Assembly: GCA_051362555.1 (NCBI GenBank)
Contig: CM120640.1
Coordinates: forward strand, 33,251,967-33,315,966
Direction: 5' to 3'
Length of the DNA: 64,000 nucleotides
From: Lingula anatina
Taxonomy: Eukaryota > Animalia > Brachiopoda
Positions within the stretch are counted from its first letter, which is position 1. The number at the start of each line of letters is the position of its first letter. The translations under genes were made by a program, and so were the position numbers. Positions 16,136-61,582 of this stretch are shown here, in pieces. The notes beneath the pieces are model-generated. The model saw only the letters and a list, made by a program, of their open reading frames with translations. It searched no databases and had not been told where the DNA came from.

Positions 16136-17347
16136 ATGTTGGCAGCAAGCTTTGAAAGTGAAAAAATGCACAGACGAAGGAGAAGAAGCACCAAGAAATA
16201 TCTTTATTTTGGTATCATTTCCATAGTCATCATTGTACTCATTGCATTGCGACCATGGACATATAGTCTTAAATGGAAAAATGAATCAAAGTATATGAGA
16301 TGCATTCATAGTAATGAAGAGAAGGATAATAGTGAGATATTTCAAGCCTATCCAGAGTATAACAAGGATACAAAGGTTATTCTATTGTGGACACATTTTT
16401 TTGGCTCACAGACCTGGTTTATACCTAAGCTTGGACGCTACATATTAGACAGGAACAACTGTAGTCAGAGAAACTGCCTTTTTGTCACTGACAAATGTTA
16501 CTTGGACAGAAGTGATGCCTTACTCTTCCACGCATTCCAAATTACCCAGTTCCCGAGACCAGCATTCCGACTGCCACATCAACGGTGGGCTGTGTATGCA
16601 TTAGAAAGCCCCTGTTATCATGATTTAAGTCCAATCAAAGGCACACCCTGGAATGGGGATTTTAACTGGACTATTTCCTATAGGTTTAATGCTGATATAA
16701 CAGTATATCATGGGGAAATTTTCAAACGTCCTAGCCCTGTGCATAATGATTATGATGATATAATGAAACTGAAGAAGAAACAAGTGGTATGGATGGTCAG
16801 CAATTGCCAGACAGAATCAAAAAGGGAAAAATATGTAGAAGAGTTGGCCAAGTATATACCAGTTGATATAATTGGAGCGTGTGGAAAACTACAGTGTCCA
16901 CATGGAGAGGATTGTTTAAAAAAGATTGCCTCAGAGTATAAGTTTCATTTGAGTTTTGAAAATTCGTTATCAGAGGATTACATGACAGAAAAATTCTTTA
17001 AGACCCTCCCTTATCCAATAGTTAATGTAGTCAGAAATGGCGCTAATATGGAGGCTTATCAAATTCCATCAGATTGGTACATCAACACTAGGGACTTTGA
17101 AAGCCCCAAAAAGTTAGCTGAGTACTTGAATGCACTTGATAAAGATGATACCAAATACATAAAGTATTTAAAAGCTAAGGAACAGTTTTCTTCAATTGAT
17201 ACACAGGATGAGTATTGTAAACTTTGTGAAAAACTCCATGATCCAAAGGTGCCAGTTAAGCAGCAGACTGATCTCTACACTTGGTGGAACATGGACAACT
17301 CAGGAAAAAGTAAAGCCTGTAAAGAGCCTTCAGATTTAAATTTTTAA
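16136..17347 (+). CDS. Alpha-1,3/4-fucosyltransferase (GT10), type II membrane protein, single coding exon
   Basis: 403-aa ORF with a basic cytosolic tail (HRRRRRSTKK), a TM segment (YLYFGIISIVIIVLIAL), ILLWT, ESP, FNWTISYR, WMVSNC and the GT10 motif YKFHLSFENSLSEDYMTEKF. The true start could be the second Met (MHRRRR). Confidence 0.93.
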   Translation: MLAASFESEKMHRRRRRSTKKYLYFGIISIVIIVLIALRPWTYSLKWKNESKYMRCIHSNEEKDNSEIFQAYPEYNKDTKVILLWTHFFGSQTWFIPKLGRYILDRNNCSQRNCLFVTDKCYLDRSDALLFHAFQITQFPRPAFRLPHQRWAVYALESPCYHDLSPIKGTPWNGDFNWTISYRFNADITVYHGEIFKRPSPVHNDYDDIMKLKKKQVVWMVSNCQTESKREKYVEELAKYIPVDIIGACGKLQCPHGEDCLKKIASEYKFHLSFENSLSEDYMTEKFFKTLPYPIVNVVRNGANMEAYQIPSDWYINTRDFESPKKLAEYLNALDKDDTKYIKYLKAKEQFSSIDTQDEYCKLCEKLHDPKVPVKQQTDLYTWWNMDNSGKSKACKEPSDLNF

Positions 17348-22400: not shown

Positions 22401-25400
22401 TGGTAAGCATCCAAATGTCCAACTTTCAACAAGTTCAAAACCATTTCACAATGAAATGCAGGGTATCTAAGAGTACATACCACAATGGTTTAAAAGCAAG
22501 CCTGAAATAACAGCTCACTAGAAAGGCACAAAACCTCCAGGGAGGAAGACAGCAGCTACTGACAATGAAGTCTGACAGATCATCCACAAAAAGCATATAA
22601 AATATGATGATGAAGTATTCTTTTGCTAACCTGTAGGTATATTGAGTTCAACAATTTCAGAATCTGAAACACTGTCCAAGTACTTGACCAGTGCTCTCAG
22701 GCTGTTTCCATGGGCAGAGATGAGGACACGTTGGCCAGACTACAAACAAGAAAATTACAATAATAATTTCTCAACTGAAATGATCTTGCAGGCAAACAAA
22801 CACTGATTAAACGGTATGCAGAATGTTTAATACTGAAAAGTTAAGACAATATTGATTTAGCAATTTATGCTGACTTAACATACTGAAACTAAACATCATT
22901 TCAAAATGCCTTATAGAATATCATCAACTTCATTTGTGTGCTATAGTTCTCCTGGGCTGGGTTGGATGAAAGGCGTATAGCACTATACGCCAGATAAATC
23001 AGCTGTGTAAATTATAATTTCTCCAATCGACTAGCAGCCTAAAATACAGTTTCACTATCACATAGGAAAAATATACTTTGAACTCCTATTGCTCTCTTCA
23101 CCACTACTGTAGCAGGTAATTGAGTTATACAGTAAGTTTAAGTATCCTATAGGTCAAATTTTTATAATAATATAGTTTTGTAAATTTTTAATGTAATGCA
23201 CTTACTTTAATGGCTGGAACAATAACATCGTACCAGTATGGAAGTACTCTCTCTACAGTATCCTTCAAGCATTCTGTGGTGGGAATTAGACGCTTGTCCA
23301 TATCCTGAAATACAAACAATGTGTGTATGTGTATTTATTAAATGAGTACATCAATTTACTAAGTCTATTTGGCAACACAAATTTCTTTCATTTTTTTCTA
23401 AAAAATCAATGTCTGGACACAAGTTAAAATAGACCTTCAGAAATAAGGAAAGCAGAAAATAAAAAATTCAAATAAGAAATGAAATAAAATCGGCGAAAAG
23501 CAGGAATTCCATTGCAAAATAACAGCAAAAATATGAATCGCTTTATATCATAAGGTATGCATGAGTAATTTTCCTGTATAGCATCTTTTTTATCACCGAG
23601 AGAATTCCATGTAGAAGAATTGTTTATTCAAACTGTAAGATCCCTACTTGATATCTGCGGTCATGACCAGGCCAGCGGGGATCAGACACTTCCAACTGTG
23701 GTGGAGGAGTATCATAGGACCTACGCCAGATCTAAAAGAGAAAATGAAAATAAGTGGCACACAAATATTATGACTCTTAGTGCTTTTTCCAGATAAAAGA
23801 CATGAGTGCTTCAAAAAAGACTTAACACTTTATGCCCTATAATATTTGACCAATAATAATTTTAAAAAAAATGAGAGAATGAAAGTTTTGAATGAAACAA
23901 AAAGCCAAGGGATTTCATTAACCCATTTCTTACCTTGACTTGTTCTTCAGAATGTTTGACAGCTGTTTCAGATTTGTTAAGACCTTGTAATGCACCATAG
24001 TGCCTTTCATTGAGTCTCCAGTGTTTGTGAACTGGGATCCAATGAAGATCCAACTCATCTAGTACGATGTTCAAAGTTTTCACGGCTCGTTTCAATACAC
24101 TGGTAAAGGCTACGTCAAAAGTATAGCCAGCCTCTTTTAACATCTGAAAATCAATCAGTGTTGAGACAGTTTAAAAGTTAATTATTCTGAAAAGTGAGAA
24201 TGATTGGTTGTACAATGTGTGAAAATCTTAACAATTTTTCTTGTAATATTCATTCTATTGATAACACATCAAATGTGGGTCATTTCAAAAATTATTTTTA
24301 GGTTATTTTTTCTACAAACACAATATTTTTCTTTGTACCAGATTACAGGATTAAACTGGTATTTTATTATGAACAACTTTTATGGATAAAAAGTTAAGTT
24401 TAGGAAGGACATTCATAAAGGATATAAATAGGGACAATCCTGTTTTGATAAGTAAAAATTCAATTTTAGCAAATAAAAAACAAAGGTTAAAATGAGCTCT
24501 TTTTGATGTTTTCATGGCTAATATATTGAAACAGAAAATTTAATTCTTGAACAACAAATAACACAGAGCATAAAATAAAACTTCTGCACCTATTGACGCC
24601 ACTGTAATCATATATTTAATAATCATCTTTGTAATACAAATAGCACACATTTAAATCTGCTTTTTATGTCGTACATTAGTTCTTGGTGAACTTCCTTCAT
24701 CAGCATGGTGTTTCTTTTTCTCAACTTTTATGTTTGGGATGGTGATGTTTTACCTTTGTTATACAAATAGCATATATTTGAATCTGCTCTTTATGTTGTA
24801 CTTTACTTCTTGGTGAACTCTATTAAACAGCATGGTGTCTTTTTTCTCAACTTTAACATTTGCAAGATAATAATGTTTTAACCTTTGTTATACAAATAGC
24901 ATATATTTGAAACTGCTTTTTATGTTGCACATTAGTTCATGGTGAACTACATTTATCAGCATGGTGGTTTTTTTGTCCAGCATTTGCATGATTGTCCAAT
25001 TTAATTTAAAAAATAAAATAAAATACAGTAACTATACTATTCCAAGCAAGACATTTGATTTTTTTTTTTTTTGTATTTCACAAATTTTTATTATTAGTTT
25101 ATTTTAAATTAACCATTTTTTTTTTCAAGTGGCCCATATAATATAATATTCCAGTTGCAATCCCGACGTTATAAGTTCATTCTGACATTTCATGCGAATC
25201 TTCATCATTCTCTGAGATAAAATTTGCAAGTCCATAATCACTGGCTAAGTGCAAACAATGGGATGGGGATTACGGATATGTAACATTCCACTCGCATTCA
25301 TCATTCTGCAAGTAACACTAGAATAAATCATTAATGTACTGTATGCCACAAAAAGAAAAAAACCAACTTCACCTTTGCTCCTGCTATAGCTTCACCGACG

Positions 25401-25501
25401 CCGAAATCAGACAAGTCGACATCAGTCCAGCCGGTAAATCTGTTCTCCTTGTTCCAGACGCTCTCTCCATGTCGCACTAGAACAATTTTATAGTTTGCCA
25501 T
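19439..25501 (-). CDS. PGAM: 2,3-BPG-dependent phosphoglycerate mutase (dPGM, PGAM/gpmA family), 6 constitutive coding exons
   Basis: Exons 25373-25501, 23934-24143, 23648-23731, 23206-23304, 22631-22739, 19439-19563. Motifs LVRHGES (phospho-His), [45 protein letters not shown] and C-terminal VAAQGKAKK. Confidence 0.96.
21605..21658 (-). CDS. Candidate 54-nt symmetric cassette exon in PGAM intron 5
   Basis: tgttttctttatttcattacag|54 nt|gtaata, phase 1/1 matching the host intron, stop-free ([18 protein letters not shown]). Confidence 0.5.
24634..24970. repeat. About 3 copies of a ~128-bp tandem repeat in PGAM intron 1
   Basis: Units begin atacaaatagca at ~24634, 24761 and 24890, each with ttttatgt..tggtgaact..cagcatggtg. 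Confidence 0.8.
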
Positions 25502-25683
25502 TCCAAATTCCCTCAATCTACTCGAGCAGGAGAGTTGTTTGAAGGTTAGCAGCTTGACCTTGATTTTCGCCGGCAAGGTGAAACGAACCTCCAGTTGGCG
25601 AGAGTGAATGCTAACTTGCATGCGTGGTGTCGCCTCTAACACAATATCAAGACCAAGACTTCCTCTTCCACGAGAGAAGCAAG
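25502..25683. promoter_or_regulatory. Bidirectional promoter for PGAM and SRP72 (182 bp between the start codons)
   Basis: Divergent ATGs at 25501 (-) and 25684 (+); CpG-richer than the flanks; TGACCTTGA (ERRE) at 25555-25563. Confidence 0.8.
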
Positions 25684-28600
25684 ATGTCTCAACAGCCGGC
25701 GAATGTGGCAACTTTGTTTGCCGATTTGCATAAATTTGGGCAAAACCAGGATTATGAGAAAGCACTTAAGACTGCAAACAAAAGTAAGTACACAGTCTTG
25801 GGTAAGAAAAAGCTTCCTCTTCGGTCATTATAGTGAACTAAAATTAGGGGTGCCAAAAATCAACAGCCATATTGTTCTCTATTACCACTAATGCTAGCAA
25901 ATAGAGCCATTTCTTTTGTTATGGTATCCATTTAAAGCCCTTCAATCCATTAGTATTTGGATTAAGAGTGTCAGTTTTTATGAAGATTTGAGATTTTAAA
26001 TGCTTTCAATTTCTCGACAGTTCTCCAAGAACTTCCAGATGATGTCACTGCGTTCCACTGCAAAATTGTATGCCTGGTTCACCTCGGGGAATTTGAAGAC
26101 GCTCTCAAGAAAATAACATCCAGTAAACATCAGGGGTAATTTCATTACACTTTCAAGACTACTGAAGCAGACATTGTAAAGATTGTTTTTTGAAAGAATA
26201 ATCCTGATATTATCTGATAATAAATTAATTTATATATTAATTAATTTATAAATTATAATAAATTGTCTCGGCATGTGAATTAAATAGTTTTAGAATGGTT
26301 TTGCAACATTTGGTATCATTGCAACCATGGACCAATGGAGACAGTATGTTCACTTTAAAAGGCAATTAAATACAGAGAAATTGCAACTTTCCAGAGAACT
26401 CGTCTTTGAGAAAGCCTATTGCCAGTACCGTTTAAACAAGACCAGTGATGCTCTGGTAACACTGAGGGAGATTGAAGATCCAGACGTCAGGGTTCAGGAG
26501 TTGATGGCACAAGTGGTAAGTGCTCACTGCCTTGGGATCTCTGCTCAAATTTATAGGGTACTTTTATTTATGTCTTCAGGAAGAGATTAAAAGTATTCTC
26601 TAATTAAATGCCCTGTCAGAATGCAGGTTAAATGTAAATGAGCTATTGTTGGCTGTACCAAAAAATATTGATGGATTTCCAGCTCATCATTTTTACCCAT
26701 TGTAATGATTGTTGCATACATAACTACTCAAAGTGCTGTGTACAACATCACGTGTGACCTCCTCATATAGTCAGAACATTCAACCTCAGAATACATGCGA
26801 TTTCACTATCTCTATAAAATATGGAAAATAAAAGAAAATAAGGAAAAATGTGAAAGTCATACATAAGGACTATTTCTTTGGGGATCTGACTGAGTCATGT
26901 TTAATAAGTTATCAAATAGAATTTTGCCCGGTGCTAGCATTGTTAGGTCGTTTGAAATAAATGTAATGGTGTGGATATGTTTATTGTTGCTGCTGAGATG
27001 CATGAGTCTTTTTGTTTAAAGTCTTCAAGAGCAAATTGACAAAGAAAACTTTAATGCAGTGGATTTAATTCGTATTATAAGGTTTGGCAATTATCTTTAA
27101 AATTTAAATTTTATTTTCAGCTGTACAGATTGGAGAATTATGAGGAATGTTACTCACTGTACAAGAATTTGGTTAAGAATTCAGAGGTAAGTTTACTAGT
27201 TAATGATGTTATTATTAAGTTAAAAACTCAATTTGATAACAATTAGGGTAATCTTTTTGGCTGAACTTTACATTGTAACTCACACTTTAGTCTGGATATT
27301 GTATCTTTTTATTTCAAGGATGACTTTGAGCAAGAACGGTACACCAATTTCTCAGCAGTTATGGCTGCATTGCAGATATCAGGAACACAAGATGTGGTAT
27401 GGGACTTCTTTATACTCTGTTTATAAGATAACTAATGAATGCTTTTTAAAGCTTCAAATATTTAATGGCATTGTTAAACACTACAACAATTTTACTACAT
27501 TAAGTGAGATTTAAACTTGTTTTTGCCTCTTTTAAGTTTATTGTTATTTTAATGTTTTAATAATTTGATGTTACATAGGAAGACCTAGGACTGGAAGAAG
27601 ATAGTTATGAACTTTTGTACAACAGTGCTTGTCTCCATTTAGCCAAAGGATTGTACAAAAAGGCAGAGGATAAGCTCAGGAAGGCAGAAGGTACAGTAAA
27701 TAACATACTTTAGGAAGAAGAGTTAAATTAACATTTCCTGAATTGGTATTTATCCAGGAACATCTATATAATACAAGCTTTTTTGTATCTTTGTAGAAAT
27801 GTGTAGACAGACTTTTTCTGAGGATGCTGATGCTACTGAGGAAGAGCTAGAAGATGAATTAGCTATCATAAGGTGAGTAAGAATTTGTGTTGGTACAGCT
27901 GAAATTGGTGTTTCATTTCAGGTTCTGGCCGGTCTAAACAAAGGTTGACAACAAACCCATCAGCGCAGTTTTTTAATGACCTGTAGCCAGCAGGCTTGTG
28001 AAGTAAAAGTTTATGCAGGGAAGATGTTCAGATTGATCAGTATGCAATTATCTATTATTTTTCTGAACTTAATGATTATCTTAATGGCTGTTTATTATTT
28101 TTAGGGTGCAGCTAGGGTATGCATTACAGATGCAAGGAAGAACAGAGGAAGCCTTGAAGCTTTACAACCTGGTTGTAAAACAAAAGTAAGTGAAGATAAT
28201 TGATTTTGTACAGTGGTTGATACATGTGCTTACTTTTATATACACACTTGAAATCAGGTTGTATGTGAAAAATAAAATTATTGTTTTTAAGTTGTTTAAT
28301 AATATCCTTCAAAATCAAATGAAATAAAAATTAAAATGCCTTTTTCAGACCCTCTGATGCTGCCTTGACTGCTGTAGCATCAAACAATGTTGTCAGTCTC
28401 AACAAGGTGGGTTGATTATGAATTTTAAGACACTGTGTTTATAACTTTTTAGCATCAAACAATTCCTTACTATGGAGCAGTTTATTCAGTACCAAAGTTT
28501 TCATTTAAGATTATAAGATTTAACATTGCATTCATCCATGAGTTTTTTTCGCAGCATTTAGTATATCTTACAGTAATCATTTAGAGTTTTGTCAGTATTC

Positions 28601-31600
28601 ATTGATGCAAATGCATTGGAATGGCAATAATTATTATATGTGTATTTATTTTATTTTATTAATACTATTATTATTTTATTCTTATAATTTTGTATCAAAA
28701 ATTAAACAAATTTTGATTAAATCTTTTCAATATTTGACTTTCAGGACCAGAATGTATTTGATTCCAAGAAGAAGATGAAAACTGCTACATCAGAAGGAGT
28801 ACAACAGAAGCTTACTTCAGCTCAAAAACAAGCTATTCAGCTGAACCAGTGCTTGCTTCTCATGTATACCAATCAGGTAGGAGAAATCAGTGAAAGAAGG
28901 CAAAAGTAGTTTGTAAGGAGCGAAAGTAACACATACACATTTAACTTTGCCTTAAAAGCTGCACACAGACATGTATTATGTATATAATTGATTCTGTATC
29001 AGTGTCACCCCTACAGTTGAATCCTGATTAAGCTTATTAGGTTCAGAATTGCCATATGGATTTTATGTGTTGATAAACCAATTGTTATATTTTGTAACTG
29101 TCATTATGACTTTTCACATTTATGCTTGTATTTGTGATAGTATATGTGGGAGTTTTTTTGAGGATTCTTCAAGTCTGCAGTTGAGAATATTTGGTAAATT
29201 TCTTTGGTAAGGATAATATGGCATTCTGGTTGCTGTTTTTTCAAAAGTAAAGAAGTTAAACAATTGTCAGCTTGATTACAGAGAACTTAATTACCCTCTG
29301 TAATTTACTGTGTTTTCCCATAGGGTGAGCAGTGCCGTAAGAGTGCTAAAGCTCTGCAAGCCATGCACCCAGAGAGTGACAAACCTAGTCTGATCATAGC
29401 AGCTCAGTGTGTCAAGGATAAGCAGATCCCCAAAGCTGTAGAGGCTTTACAGGTGAGAAGAATTTTGTGGGAAATATTTACTATCTTAAGCCTGTTACAA
29501 ACAACATTCTACATTTAGTTATCATTGACAGTTACAGTCAATGAATTAAGAATTGGTGAAATATAGCTGAAGTGGCAAGGTTTACTAAATATGTGTATGA
29601 TTCTTTACGTTGAATAGAAATGACATTATTTAGTTGTCCATTTGATATCAAGCACAATCTTGTTGAAATGATAATTCTATAAATGAATAATTTATAGAGT
29701 AAACTGTTCACAGTAAAAAAAAAACTGCTTAAGAGTTGAACCTAATAGAATCTGCGATAAAGATGAAAATGAATTCTCTCTATACCCCTGTTTGGCTGTG
29801 CCGTACCTTTTGTACCAACTGAATTAACCAAATCTCCATTGTTTTCTATATAAAAGGAGCATGTGTCCAGCCATCCAGAGCAGTCTGTGAGTATCAAGTT
29901 GACCCTGGCCCAGCTGAACCTTCTCCAGGGGATGGTCTACCCAGCCTGTGAGAACCTCAGGGCACTGGGAGAACACAGCTTCAGACCAGGAGTGGTATGG
30001 AACTAGATCTTACATTGATTTCCATTGTAACTGGGATACAATGAAAATGCTTATATTGTGTTTTAGGTAATGATGATAAGAAAAATTATATAACTTGAAA
30101 GAGACTAAACATGTTTCATTGATATCACCTTGATGTGTTTATCCTTTTGTAAAAATTGTTTTTATGAAGATGGATGTGTAAATGATTGCGTGTTCTTATG
30201 TTTTTTACAGGTCTCTGCTTTGGTCAGCTTGTACTTGAAAGAAGAAGACAGAGCCTCAGCCTCAGAGGTGCTGAACCAGGCTGTTGATTGGTGGAAGAAA
30301 AATAATGTGAGTTTGATATTCCACCCCCTCCCGCCCCAAAAAATACAGAGAAAATTGAAAACATGAGTTCTTTTAGGAAAGCAAGTTAAACTTAGTACCT
30401 CTTTGCTAGGTAATTTTTAGCATTTTTTTGTTCTTATATGGCTTAAGAAAGGAGTATTTGTATTTAGGTGATGCATGTTCAAATGAAACGTTAATTGACC
30501 TGTTGTTAATAAAATAATGTAATTTTTACAACATTTTAGCCAAACTCCGAAGAGACTGCTACTTTGATGACATCCAATGCCAACTTCCAGCTGCGATATG
30601 GCAGTGCAGAAATGGCTGCTAAATTGTTGGAAGAGCTAAGAAAGTAAGAATGGCATTATGTTTACCATTCAACTGTTATTTCAGTTTAAAATGATTATTT
30701 AAGTTAAATAAACAATATTTTCATGTTCTTTGAAAGTTAACCTCTTTGATATACTTTTCCAGACAAAAACCGAAGGACAGCAAGATATTAGCCCAGCTTA
30801 TCAGTGCTTACTCTAAGTTTAACCCTGCCAAAGCACAGGAGTATCCTTTTCCGTTTTCAGTGTCTAGAAAAAATGAGCATATCCCTTAGATGTTCAAAGC
30901 AAATTTATTTTAGGATATTTTTGCATTAATGCACAGGGCATTATATCTGTGGTTTAAGAGAATATTGCACAAATGCTTTTTCTCAGTTTGATAATTATTG
31001 TGATCATTTGTAGAAAGATTTTATAAAGGGCATAAATATATTATACTATTAATACAAAACAACAAGCAATTTAGAAAGTCTGTATAATATGATTCACCTA
31101 AGAAGTATTGTTAAAACTTAACCACTCCCTAGACTTAGCAAATCCCTACCCTCAGCATCGGAGATTGCCCAGGAATTGGATGTAGAAGCTTTGGAAAAGT
31201 CCATCAATGTCATGGGACCTAAGTACATTAAAAAGTCGACCAAGGTGGAGTCGCCTAGACCGTAAGTCTTTATTAGATGTCTTTATTACTTTACATTATA
31301 AAAATAAGATGACTAACCTTACAGTACAAGGGTCATGCAAAACATGTAGGTATAATAATTGCTGTTATAGAAACTTAGTCTTGCTCATGTTTTATTTTAC
31401 CCCTCAACAGTTCGCTATTCACTGCCACATTTGGCTGTAGTAGTACTTTTATTCTCAATGGCATTTCTATTCTAGTAATATATTTTCACTTACATCTGCA
31501 GCAGACAGAAAATTACTTGACCAATTAGTCATCAAATGTTTATATTTACAGTGGCACTGACGATGAGTTGCTTCAGAAGAAAAGAAAGAAAAAACACAAG

Positions 31601-32751
31601 AAGGGTAAGAATTTACTATAAAAACATGTTTGACATCAGTAAAATTTTCGATTTCATCAGAATTTTTTTTTTGAGTGATTTTAGTCGGTAGATGATGGAA
31701 ATGCAGATTTTTAGAATCTAAAAGGTAACTTTTGAGACCTTGGCATATTTTGAATAAATTAACCAACCCATCAGAATAAGGCTTGAATATCATGTAGCAT
31801 GTTTAAGTATGCACATAAAATTTTTAATTTTTCTGATAAAGAGAGGGTATTGATACAAAGCAAATGTAACATAGGAAATCAAAATTTAAAGTATTTATAC
31901 ATTTTCTTTTTTAATGTAGGTAAGCTGCCTAAGAACTATGATCCTGGTAGTGATCCTGATCCTGAAAGATGGCTGCCCAAGAAAGAACGGTCTTACTACA
32001 GAGGCAAAAGAAAGGACAAAAGAAAAGAGATTGGTAAGCTATTTATACTGCTGCTATCACATATTGAAGCATTACTTTGAATGCACTACAGATACCTTAG
32101 TGCTGTTCTATTTAATAAAACAAAGATAGGTGGTCATATCAGTACATAAGTAACTGATAAATAAATAGCAGTTTTGCCAGATTTTTAGATACAAAAACTG
32201 GGCCATCACATCATAAAGCACTACAGTTTTTTCTCTTTTTTATTTTTCAAAATTGCAATGATAGTTTCTACAAAACTGCAGGTTCACATAAAGAGTTATT
32301 ACTTATTATTTTATCAATTAATTAATTTTATCAATTATATATTGTTATATTTTTTGTTCACAGGCCGTGGAGCTCAGGGTGCAACTTCAGGTGGTGCTGA
32401 CCTGTAAGTATTTTAAAGTTATAGGTGCTACTGTGCAACATGATAAACAAAAAGCTGAATGCCATGTCAGCATAATAACTCAAATAAAACGGGTGTTATT
32501 GTGAACACATTTCCATTTGTATCATTTAACAGCAGCTGGTACTAAATAGAAACAGGCTGAAAAATTTGTTACTGTGTGCCTTTTCTAAAATAATGTTCTC
32601 CATTTGCAGAGATGCCAGTAAGCCTAGTGGTGAAAGCTCAGCCTCCCCTGCGGCTGGGTCTGCCCCTAGTCCCGTAGCTCCTGGACCCAGGCAGCAGAAA
32701 CCACAGTCTGGGAACAAGCAGAAGAAGAAAAAGAAGGGAAGCAAGTGGTAA
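25684..32751 (+). CDS. SRP72: Signal recognition particle subunit SRP72, 20 exons
   Basis: Exons 25684-25783, 26021-26135, 26395-26515, 27121-27186, 27319-27396, 27579-27690, 27797-27872, 28105-28185, 28349-28406, 28745-28876, 29324-29452, 29857-29994, 30211-30306, 30540-30643, 30763-30840, 31133-31261, 31552-31604, 31920-32033, 32364-32403, 32610-32751. Motifs [21 protein letters not shown], the RNA-binding [27 protein letters not shown] and C-terminal KKKKKGSKW. Confidence 0.96.
30841..31132 (+). other. U12-type (minor spliceosome) GT-AG intron in SRP72
   Basis: 5' splice site GTATCCTTTT, branch-like CTTAAC at 31117-31122 about 10 nt before the AG, no long pyrimidine tract. Confidence 0.85.
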
Positions 32752-39651: not shown

Positions 39652-42600
39652 ATGCAAAATCAGGGCTCACTATCACAACACAACACCCTCGAGATGACGT
39701 CTCTGATGAAGGTGCCTATGTCCACTGGGATTAGGAGGCTGTTTTATGCCGTTACACCTAATGAAACGTCATTTGAAAATGTTGATGATGTCCCTCATTA
39801 CATCGAGGATGTAAGTAATAAGTGTCTTGTGAAAAACAGTAAATATACATAGCGATCAGTAATTGCAACTGTCTGTCTGTTGTTATGCAATTGTGCACTG
39901 GCACATATATAGTGCATTTATCACTAAGTATAAAGGGCAAGCAGTTACCGATGGCAAAGTACAAATAGTTCAGATAGCTGTGTGAAGGCATGCAGTGATG
40001 ATATTTTCCTTATTAAAATTTTATAATAAAATAATAATAAATAATGTTCATGAGTATGTTGTACATGTAACAGCTAGTGCACTATACAGTACATGTAGTG
40101 TGTTAAATTGTTAATTTTATTTACTCCATGTGTTTTGTTATCATGCAGTATAGTGCAGTTCATAACATTTGTTCAGAATTTCAATATCTATTTTTTATTG
40201 CAAATCACTTAAAGGTTCCTAAAAAGTTAATTATTTTCTGAAGAGACCGAAGAAATTAATTCTCACCATCGAAGTATGATATCAATTTAGCCCTTCATCA
40301 AAGTACCAGTACTTTGATAACATTAATGATGCTTAATTTCTGAAGAAAACAATCAAATTTTTATCATCGTTAGAAGACTTTTCTTACCATACATAGGCTG
40401 TTCCATTCTTTGTATTTGCTGTTGCCTTGGAAGTGGTGGTCGGGCTGTTAACAGGCAAGCAGGTTTTACGGATAAACGATGCCATTACTTCAGCTGGAGC
40501 TGGCTTAATTTCACTTTTACCATTGTGAGTAAAAAAGTTCTCCAAAGCATGCAGAAGATTATCTTAAACAGTTTGTTATTATGAAAATATAATATATATA
40601 AATATGAAAATTGCTACTTATTATATCTCACTATACTTTTATCATGTTGTATTGTTGGTTTGTTCCATTATATTTTTTTACTTGGAATTAACCCTCATAC
40701 ACAAAACTTTCAAAATACAATAACAAATTATACATGGGTAGAGAAATTTGGTTAAAAGAAATGAAAAGAAAAAAGATGATTGACAGAGGCCCTACAGACT
40801 GATTAGTCAGATTTTCAATTATTGGTCAGTTTTCATATTTCATTTGAACATCTACTGAGCAGTATACAAATTCTGAGCACATGGGACTTAGTTGTTCCCC
40901 ACTTTCCTGACTGGATAACAAGTGTGTCCCATCTTGAAGGTCTGTTAAATGATTTATATTAATTGACATTTATAGGTTATTGATGAGAGGAATTGAAATA
41001 ACTGGATATGTTTGGGTACATGAAAGATTCTGTCTCTATGAACTGCCGTGGAACTCTGCCTGGACTTGGTGGCTGTGCTTCATTGCTGTTGACTTCGGCT
41101 ATTACTGGTTTCATAGAATGGCACATGGTAAAGACATTTTCATACATGTATTCAGAAGAAAATAATAATGCAATCATTTAAATGATAAAAATGCAGCAAT
41201 TCTGTATACTCTTAATTTTTTTATATTATGTCTTTATCTAGAGATGCAACAACTGATTCTTCTATTTTTTGTCCATTTTTTACAAAAGACAACTCATTTT
41301 TGTTATCTTTTTGCATGTACAACTTAAACCTGAACAGATGAATTTTTTTTTTTTGTTTCCTGTGATGCTGTTGGATTGAAATGATATCTGGGTTATTTTC
41401 AGAGGTCAACTTTATGTGGGCATCCCACCAGACTCACCACAGTGCTGAGGACTACAACCTGAGCACAGCTTTGAGACAGTCAATTTTGCAGAGGTACCTC
41501 TCTTGGGTAAGTTGACAGGATTTAGTATCAAACTTGTTAGAAAAGTATAATTGTGACTAGTTATTATCATATTGATTTTCTGTATCCTAGCCAGTTGAAT
41601 TGTCAGTAAAATATATTTTTTTAATTTATCAGTTTTTACTGTACAGTGGTTATTTTTATTTTGATAGTAAATATGACTTAAATGGTACACAAGAATATTG
41701 AATACATAAATATATTTAAAAAACTGTGTATTCTTAGATTTTAATCGGTAAAGTTCAGTTTTCTTTTGGTCATTTTGTCAACCTTAACGAAATCCATATG
41801 TTCACATTAATTTGGGAGATAGATTGACCTTTCATCAATTTAGAACTTTTATATCAAATTAATATTTGGATATGCGCAATTGAAACTTTGTTTCATGAAA
41901 TTACATTTCAGGTATTTTACCTTCCTTTAGCCTTGATTGTTCCTCCAGCAATTTTTGTAGCTCACCTCCAGTTTAATATTCTCTACCAGTTTTGGATACA
42001 CAATGAGGTATATCACGAAAAATTTTTTGCTTGATTTTTCTCTTCATAATCCTGCTTTCAGATATTTTATTTGCCTTTAGCGTTGTGTGTCCCACCGTCC
42101 ATATATCTTATGCATGTTGAATTTAATACAATTTATCAGTTTTGGATTCATACTCTGGTAAGTTACAATGTATATATACTATTATGTATTATTTTGTGTT
42201 TTTGACTAAATAACTTCTCTTCCTTGAACTTTTATCAAAAAATTGTTAAAATTTGCTTTTACATAAATTTTTCATACTACATATTTTACATATGTTCTCT
42301 GTTTAATTAATTTGCACCCCAATATACGTTATCAGACAGGTTTTATTCCATTTAGATGACATCAAAAGTTTGCCTCTTTACAAATTGGGATGATGGCAAC
42401 ATATTTATTACACATATTTGAATATTGATACGCATTTATTATAAATATTGTATTAATCTTTGTAATAATTATCGTGTTCTGCATTTGTTTCTCATTTGTA
42501 GTATTTACAGTATAATTGAGCATTTTGTTCTTACAGATGATAAAATCCTTAGGGCCCCTCGAGTGGATTTTGAACACCCCAAGTCACCATCGAGTTCACC

Positions 42601-44259
42601 ATGGCAGGAATCCATACTGTATAGACAAAAACTATGCTGGGACTCTAATAATTTGGGACCGTCTGTTCGGAACCTTCCAGGCTGAGAATGAGGAGGTGGT
42701 GTACGGACTCACACACCCAATCAACACATTTAACCCTATAGAAGCACAGGTTTGTTTTATATGTATATATATAAATCCGCCAGTGAACTGCTCGAGCTGT
42801 AAATTTTTTTTCTCCTATGTGATAAAGCTGTATATGGAAAAAGAGCATATAATTATTATTTATCACAGATCGTTTCCACCAGCTCAGTCTGGTGTAAAAG
42901 TGTATGTCAAGCTCTCTGTTGATATTGTTTCCATCTTTTAATTTTTAGTTTGGTTATGTAAAATATTTGTGGAGCAGATTATGGGAATTTGACAATCTAA
43001 GTGACAAGGTCTCATCCCTAGTTAAAGGACCAGGTTGGGCACCTGGTAAACCTAGGCTTGGGAACATAGAAGACATTCCAAAGGTAAGTAAACTGGCACT
43101 TCATCAGGACAAATACAGTGTAGGTAAATGCATTTTTGTCAGGTAAATCTCAGATGTGATATTTTATGAGAAATGCTGTGGGTTGATATGGCCAGTGGGT
43201 TGAGACTTGAAGATACTGTGTAGCTATCCTTCGTACTAGCACCCTTAGAATGCATTCAGAACGTACAGCAAACTTACAGATCCGTGGATCAAATATGACC
43301 TTGTCAATCATGTACTGTCTGTCAGCAGTTTATTTGTCACAGAAGACAATAATATTTATCAATTTTGTAGAAAGTATTTAATGTCTATTTTAGGTAAAGG
43401 CACCTGTAAAGAAGTATGACAGTGGACTGCCTTTGTCATTGAGTTTATTTGTGCTGAGTCATTATTTGCTGGTTTTGATTGGTTACCAGGAACTGGTAGC
43501 TAGGAAAAGTGTAAGTGATCTCTGAATTTTTAACAACAAGAAAATCTTATGAAAATTTTTTATTTGAAAAAAAAAAAAATCAGAATGAGCACAATGGTGC
43601 TTTTACACTGGACACAAACACTTTGAATGATCAGTATTTAAACCACGAGAACATATATGATGCTAAAGAACATGCCAGCATATAAATCCATGATAGCGAA
43701 ATAAGGTTTCAGCAGTACGATGAAGAAGAAAAAGTACACCTCTTAACCTGTAACTCATTGAAATTTGTGCCTTCTTTTCTTTTTAGGGATTAAGTCAACT
43801 AAATGTTGCATGTTTCATTGCTTACATTGTGCTGTCTCTGACGTGTTTTGGAGCACTATTTGATAACAGGTAATTTAGACATTTCTTTAAAAAATTTCCT
43901 TGCCACATTGGAAAAGACTGAACAGTTTTAACTCTTCTACAAATATAATGATTCCTGTAGTACATCATACCAGTATTGTACCTTTTTAATTAAGCGACCT
44001 CTTACCTTTATTTTTCTGTCTGTTCTTTATTTTCCATAATTTTTGTTGTAGATTTTATGCGCCATTCCTGGAATGTTTTCGCTGTGTGCTGTTTGTTGCT
44101 TGTGATCTTTACCTCACAAGGGGCAGGTTGGAGGAGCGTCCAGTCTGGCAGCACTTGATCCAGTGGTATTTTCTGTTTTCTGCATGTCTCTGGGGTCTGC
44201 AGGCTGTAAGGATGCTCATGAGTCCAAAGAATGAAAAAGAACAGCAAAAACAGAGTTGA
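39652..44259 (+). CDS. AGMO: Alkylglycerol monooxygenase (TMEM195; BH4-dependent ether-lipid cleavage, fatty acid hydroxylase superfamily)
   Basis: Exons 39652-39810, 40397-40524, 40976-41127, 41403-41506, [41912-42007 or 42062-42157], 42537-42749, 42949-43083, 43394-43510, 43787-43869, 44052-44259. His motifs YYWFHRMAHE, WASHQTHHS, YQFWIH, TPSHHRVHHGRNPYCIDKNYAG, plus KGPGWAPGKPRLG. The start Met is uncertain (several in exon 1). Confidence 0.94.
42062..42157 (+). CDS. AGMO: AGMO alternative exon 5b, a duplicate of exon 5a (41912-42007)
   Basis: ttcag|96 nt|gtaagt, phase 0/0, encoding IFYLPLALCVPPSIYLMHVEFNTIYQFWIHTL versus 5a VFYLPLALIVPPAIFVAHLQFNILYQFWIHNE. Confidence 0.85.

Positions 44260-52146: not shown

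Positions 52147-61582
<9,436 letters not shown>

Follow-up and report, generated by a model that had tools for sequence, protein, structure and literature searches.

The AGMO gene of Lingula anatina carries two tandem copies of its fifth coding exon, here called 5a and 5b, which derive from an old duplication, have both been held under constraint and are both spliced to exon 6, with 5a as the major copy. The explanation favored here, to which slightly better than even chances are given, is that the two copies are likely used singly and that the resulting pair of 450-residue enzymes would differ in turnover or in fit to lipid substrates, and not in metal or cofactor chemistry.

Within the window, which is the whole stretch of 64,000 nucleotides analyzed, the AGMO coding region occupies positions 39694..44259 on the + strand, as defined by tblastn of the RefSeq Lingula isoforms (P0030 and P0146), Pfam domains and splice sites. 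It consists of ten exons, with exon 5 present in two copies, and specifies 450 aa per isoform. Its identification as AGMO in the original prediction was confirmed by exon 6 (42537..42749, +), a constant exon supported by reads that bears the third histidine cluster and matches isoform X1 of Lingula anatina AGMO at 100% identity. Both isoforms contain the Pfam domains FA_hydroxylase (PF04116) and AGMP_C (PF24858, the AGMO C-terminal domain), and both keep the histidine clusters. The likeness to the human enzyme, as far as the available text of PMC3304488 describes it, extends to the fatty acid hydroxylase histidine motif and to equivalents of E137, Q197 and H201, of which E137 and H201 are kept in both isoforms. 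Further upstream, an in-frame ATG (window 39652-39693) would give 14 extra residues ahead of the RefSeq start. A separate partial Lingula model of 251 aa on another scaffold (P0145, XP_013402447.1), which belongs to the same four-member RefSeq cluster as the two full-length isoforms, begins at the exon 6 Met and differs from the window at 2-3 residues; it may represent an allelic scaffold or a partial duplicate. Neighboring genes in the window include SRP72 (25681-32748, +), a histidine phosphatase (23862-25765, -), a protein kinase (59380-59652, -) and, at 16136-17347 (+), a long open frame encoding both GT10 fucosyltransferase domains.

The two copies of exon 5 lie downstream of exon 4 (41403..41506, +), which is defined by RNA reads and splice sites, is constant in Lingula, encodes the HxxHH cluster, contains the greater part of the codon for the E137 equivalent, and ends at the donor TGG/GTAAGT. 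Exon 5a (41912..42007, +; reads and RefSeq X1) encodes residues 168-199, with Q at human position 191 and E at 203, and its donor matches the consensus at 6/9 positions. Exon 5b (42062..42157, +; reads and RefSeq X2) is the minor copy, with E and L at the same two positions and a donor of 8/9 consensus. Between them lies an intron of 54 nt (42008..42061, +), in which motif prediction marks the A at position 27 and that at position 39 as branch-point-like. Each copy is 96 nt long and thus a multiple of three, is in phase 0, and is preceded by AG and followed by GT; the coordinates, splice sites and translations originally proposed for the pair all stood.

The sequences of the two copies are revealing of their history. 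Exons 5a and 5b are identical at 62/96 nt and 20/32 residues, and 11 of the 20 codons that specify the same residue differ synonymously between them. Silent sites are saturated (pS 0.81) and pN is low (0.22), while both exons fit the family equally well, with scores of 82.6 for 5a and 81.2 for 5b against a profile of 129 other homologs, 13 of which score below either. Saturated silent sites, low pN and equal profile fit together point to an old duplication under purifying selection, in agreement with the earlier proposal that selection has acted on both copies. Simulation of 34 random base changes left at least 20 residues intact in 1/100,000 copies, and under neutral drift a copy of 5a reached the profile score of 5b in 0.4% of draws at 0.1 changes/site and in 1/20,000 draws at 0.2 changes/site. 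The translation of 5b is also the same in the window and in the RefSeq model (32/32 residues), weak evidence in a protein that differs at only 5/450. Judged from such comparisons, purifying selection has acted on 5b through most of its existence, with the qualification that recent relaxation may have occurred.

Use of both exons, as initially expected, was borne out by RNA, in which 5a and 5b are each joined to exon 6. Eight of nine raw RNA runs under the same species label, with coded sample names, were sampled at 6-30% of each run, and a joint was listed when it had at least three reads. The joint between exons 4 and 5a (41506-41912) was covered by 89 reads in 7/8 runs, and that between 5a and 6 (42007-42537) by 71 reads in 6/8 runs. 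The joint between 5b and 6 (42157 to 42537) was covered by 3 reads with 3 starts in RNA run X3, with GT..AG at the predicted sites; in RNA run X1 a depth of 2 on 5b stops exactly at this joint, which suggests 2 more sub-threshold reads. The share of 5b among downstream joints is therefore 3/74 listed, or 4% (95% interval 1-11%), and becomes 5/76, or 7% (2-15%), with the 2 additional reads, on counts in which mates may not be independent. Depth on 5b was zero in 5/8 runs, and in RNA run X9 all of the reads on 5b were unspliced. The remaining joints named in the original prediction, 4-5b (41506-42062) and 5a-5b (42007-42062), together with the direct 4-6 joint, were absent at >=3 reads in these eight shallowly sampled runs. 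Two letters upstream of 5b in RNA run X3 are equally compatible with two 4-5b reads or with one 5a-5b read, and a comparison of 5 reads with at most 1 on the question of exclusivity was not significant (p 0.11). Across window positions 41403-42749 the reads also show sequence variation: exons 4 and 6 contain 12 variant sites, of which 11 are silent, and 5a has none listed at a depth of up to 40.

Because the reads do not settle which exon precedes 5b, the argument for exclusive use leans on the RefSeq models and the 54-nt intron. RefSeq holds two models on one contig, both of 450 aa, of which XP_013417440.1 (X1) carries 5a and XP_013417441.1 (X2) carries 5b. They differ at 12 residues, all inside exon 5, and the RefSeq cluster contains one-or-the-other forms only, among 3 of 4 members. 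The two exons in these models are the same as those in the window, with identical protein, and each is joined between exons 4 and 6. The models differ from the present gene in being automatic, and the window departs from them at 4/39 residues of exon 1 and at one residue of exon 10, which suggests that the window represents another individual or assembly. As to the intron, the other nine in AGMO measure about 180-590 nt and those of the neighboring SRP72 go down to about 106 nt (from tblastn gaps in the best 3 of 20 homologs), and none of some 28 nearby introns besides the one between 5a and 5b is shorter than about 106 nt; both lengths given in the original prediction, 54 nt and about 106 nt for the next shortest, were thus reproduced. 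The steric criterion for exclusive exons, drawn from human data, is a donor-to-branch-point distance of <50 nt (PMC5740500, available text), and the predicted branch-point A at position 27 or 39 of 54 falls under this human-derived value. Given the RefSeq models and the intron, 5a and 5b are most likely mutually exclusive, as first proposed, although no 4-5b joint is listed in the reads.

It is very unlikely that 5b instead serves as a cassette included after 5a (5a-5b-6), in which case translation in the retained frame would yield 482 residues and a helix hairpin present twice, or the transcript would be a regulatory dead end. Such inclusion is allowed by exon lengths that are multiples of three, by the depth in RNA run X3, which has room for one 5a-5b read, and by the fact that 54-nt introns are ordinary in some annelids, with medians of 57 and 66 nt in two species (bioRxiv 2020.05.07.078311, available text); no genome-wide distribution of intron sizes for Lingula was found in the literature searched. 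However, RefSeq has one form or the other among those 3 of 4 cluster members, no similarly short intron occurs among some 28 neighbors, and constraint across all of 5b, histidine included, suits replacement more than insertion.

With exclusive use as the preferred reading, any branch point in the 54-nt intron would lie <50 nt from the 5a donor, and a spliceosome on 5a would block the 5b acceptor. Exon 5a, being transcribed earlier, would win by default despite the better consensus sites of 5b, which has 13/17 acceptor pyrimidines vs 10/17 for 5a in addition to its 8/9 vs 6/9 donor. Where 5a is passed over, which is probably limited to a few cell types or stages, 5b would be included instead. 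The minor use of 5b despite its better sites fits either first-come definition of 5a or active repression of 5b. Tandem exclusive pairs with steric interference described in human (57/629 clusters, 9%) are similar in having homologous exons of equal length, a distance of <50 nt and a pattern of one dominant and one restricted exon; the Lingula case differs in that the whole intron is 54 nt, and AGMO is absent from the main text of that study so far as it is available (PMC5740500). As splicing biology, the AGMO exon pair is an ordinary kind of event. Exon 5a does begin with GTATTT, as the original prediction observed, but the proposal built on it, that the 4/5a junction regenerates a donor and is spliced again to 5b, lacks support because the junction matches the consensus at 5/9 positions, below the 6/9 found at an ordinary AGMO junction, that of exons 7 and 8, and because Val begins this exon in 41/129 homologs. 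A search for docker/selector pairing returned 23 short AT-rich inverted repeats (counted with no shuffle control), none with an arm pairing with sites at both exons.

Replacement of 5a by 5b changes 12 residues, including Q191E, I194T and E203L in human numbers, which were assigned through a gibbon protein of 445 aa that agrees with the residues cited in a study of human AGMO mutants (PMC3304488). In the available text of that study, H201A has no activity; Y174A, H189A, Q191A, Q197A and E203A have lowered activity; H189A and E203A leave the Km unaltered from wild type for both BH4 and the pyrene substrate; and the BH4 Km is raised only by E137A. The equivalents of Y174, H189, Q197 and H201 are the same in 5a and 5b, and the equivalent of E137 lies at the exon 3/4 junction, outside the swapped exon. 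The original designation of a catalytic exon is overstated, in that the one essential residue of the exon, the H201 equivalent, and Q197 do not differ between the copies. In a model built from a 131-sequence alignment (pLDDT 95), with helices at 163-175 and 179-195, exon 5 is predicted to supply the C-terminal half of the first helix, an interruption at Pro-Pro and the second helix, which runs toward the essential histidine. The 12 substitutions would then reshape helix faces while the histidine and Q197 are retained. Structure searches for the AGMO catalytic domain matched the C-terminal bundle only and returned no solved relative by which to place residues against the metal site.

A change in cofactor use between the isoforms, one of the functions initially suggested, is unlikely; the idea is weakened because E137 lies outside the exon and because the BH4 Km of human E203A is unchanged in the available text. 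That the isoforms differ in turnover or in fit to substrate is plausible; the unchanged Km of E203A for one test substrate (PMC3304488, available text) counts against it. It is also possible, at a clearly lower probability than the preferred reading, that the exons are exclusive and both functional while the enzymes are near-equivalent, with 5b kept through chance use in a particular cell type or stage. The 12 changes mostly involve residues common in other AGMOs, the 5b residue being the commoner among 129 homologs at 6/12 positions; acidic residues at 191 have 4 separate origins among these homologs, and this recurrent replacement of Q by E may simply be tolerated; and the histidine and Q197 are shared. 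In contrast, L203 and M188 of 5b and N202 of 5a each occur in 0/129 homologs, and two of the swapped positions matter in the human mutants (PMC3304488, available text), which argues against near-equivalence.

A further explanation is that the 5b enzyme has low activity, or has lately lost its constraint, and that the exon is spliced only as leakage. E203L removes the polarity of a position at which a polar residue is kept in 129/129 homologs, human E203A is less active (PMC3304488, available text), and 5b accounts for only about 4-7% of joints. Leakage is nevertheless improbable when set against a profile fit equal to that of the major exon, splice-site consensus better than that of 5a and, more weakly, the complete identity of 5b between the window and RefSeq. 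The preferred reading remains that of two exclusive exons whose enzymes would be distinct in turnover or in fit to substrate.

Alternative exons of AGMO were found nowhere described in the literature searched, whose coverage excludes most subscription journals, and the word isoform does not occur in the available main text of an AGMO review (PMC7911779). MetazExp (PMC8728262), which covers splicing across many animals, may contain an AGMO event. The earlier statement that no description was known is borne out by the papers searched; RefSeq, however, already contained both forms. The exon pair is new to print as far as searched, yet annotated automatically. Among 321 AGMO proteins with an intact core, Lingula was the only source of a pair whose differences are limited to exon 5, and no such pair was found for vertebrates. 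Clusters of relatives were examined for 30 of several hundred representatives, and no other named brachiopod or phoronid AGMO was present among the matches.

Molluscs possess two AGMO paralogs, with Q vs E or D at 191. In bivalves and gastropods these take the form of a Q191/E203 type and an E191 type with mostly Q203, a pair for which no discussion was seen in the literature searched. A 28-row tree built with exon 5 omitted recovers the paralogs as clades supported at 100/100 and 95/91. It places Lingula not in the Q clade but in a weak group (82/90) that also contains the E clade, annelids, vertebrates and a chiton. Orthology of 5b to the mollusc E191-type exon was considered and is not supported, the mean identity to 18 such proteins (3/18 grouped by motif) being 21.0/32 for 5a vs 20.6/32 for 5b; these proteins share I194 with 5a and E191 with 5b. 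Coupling of positions 191 and 203 is likewise unsupported, with strong raw counts of 90 Q/E and 15 E/Q of 129 that reduce on correction for kinship to 4 independent pairs (sign test p 0.5-1).

The Q paralog of oysters and mussels has a second kind of isoform pair. RefSeq X1 and X2 models of equal length are present in Magallana gigas, Crassostrea angulata, C. virginica, Mytilus edulis and M. galloprovincialis (P0283/P0285, P0290/P0286, P0284/P0289, P0273/P0307 and P0298/P0305), for example XP_011419849.3/XP_011419850.2 in Magallana gigas and XP_071154750.1/XP_071154751.1 in Mytilus edulis. They differ at 7-12 residues, all within the stretch that corresponds to Lingula exon 4 (window 41403-41506), and the two exon-4 types recur in oysters and mussels, which belong to two bivalve families. 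Like the Lingula isoforms, these pairs are equal in length and restrict their changes to a single block of the catalytic core about the size of an exon; unlike them, they involve the neighboring exon and a paralog clade (100/100) that excludes the Lingula gene, and the comparison was made on proteins. They apparently represent a second, independent and old pair of exclusive exons. A tentative and rather doubtful extension is that one small stretch of the spiralian AGMO core was diversified by two or more exon duplications (that of exon 5 in Lingula, that of exon 4 in oysters and mussels) and by one gene duplication (the Q191 and E191 types of molluscs), as the animals would need enzymes of different substrate ranges. 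If this were true, the exon pairs would be natural swap experiments that locate the determinants of substrate specificity in AGMO, for which no structure has been solved. The Lingula isoforms, with their 12-residue difference in the helix before the essential histidine, form with the bivalve exon-4 pairs a small, ready panel for residues that set substrate range.

Several vertebrate records (six listed of 16 rows: P0117, P0068, P0108, P0069, P0097 and P0081) are without exactly the 32 residues of exon 5, histidine included. These 32-residue gaps show that vertebrate exon 5 has the same borders as that of Lingula, and the records probably represent inactive skip forms.
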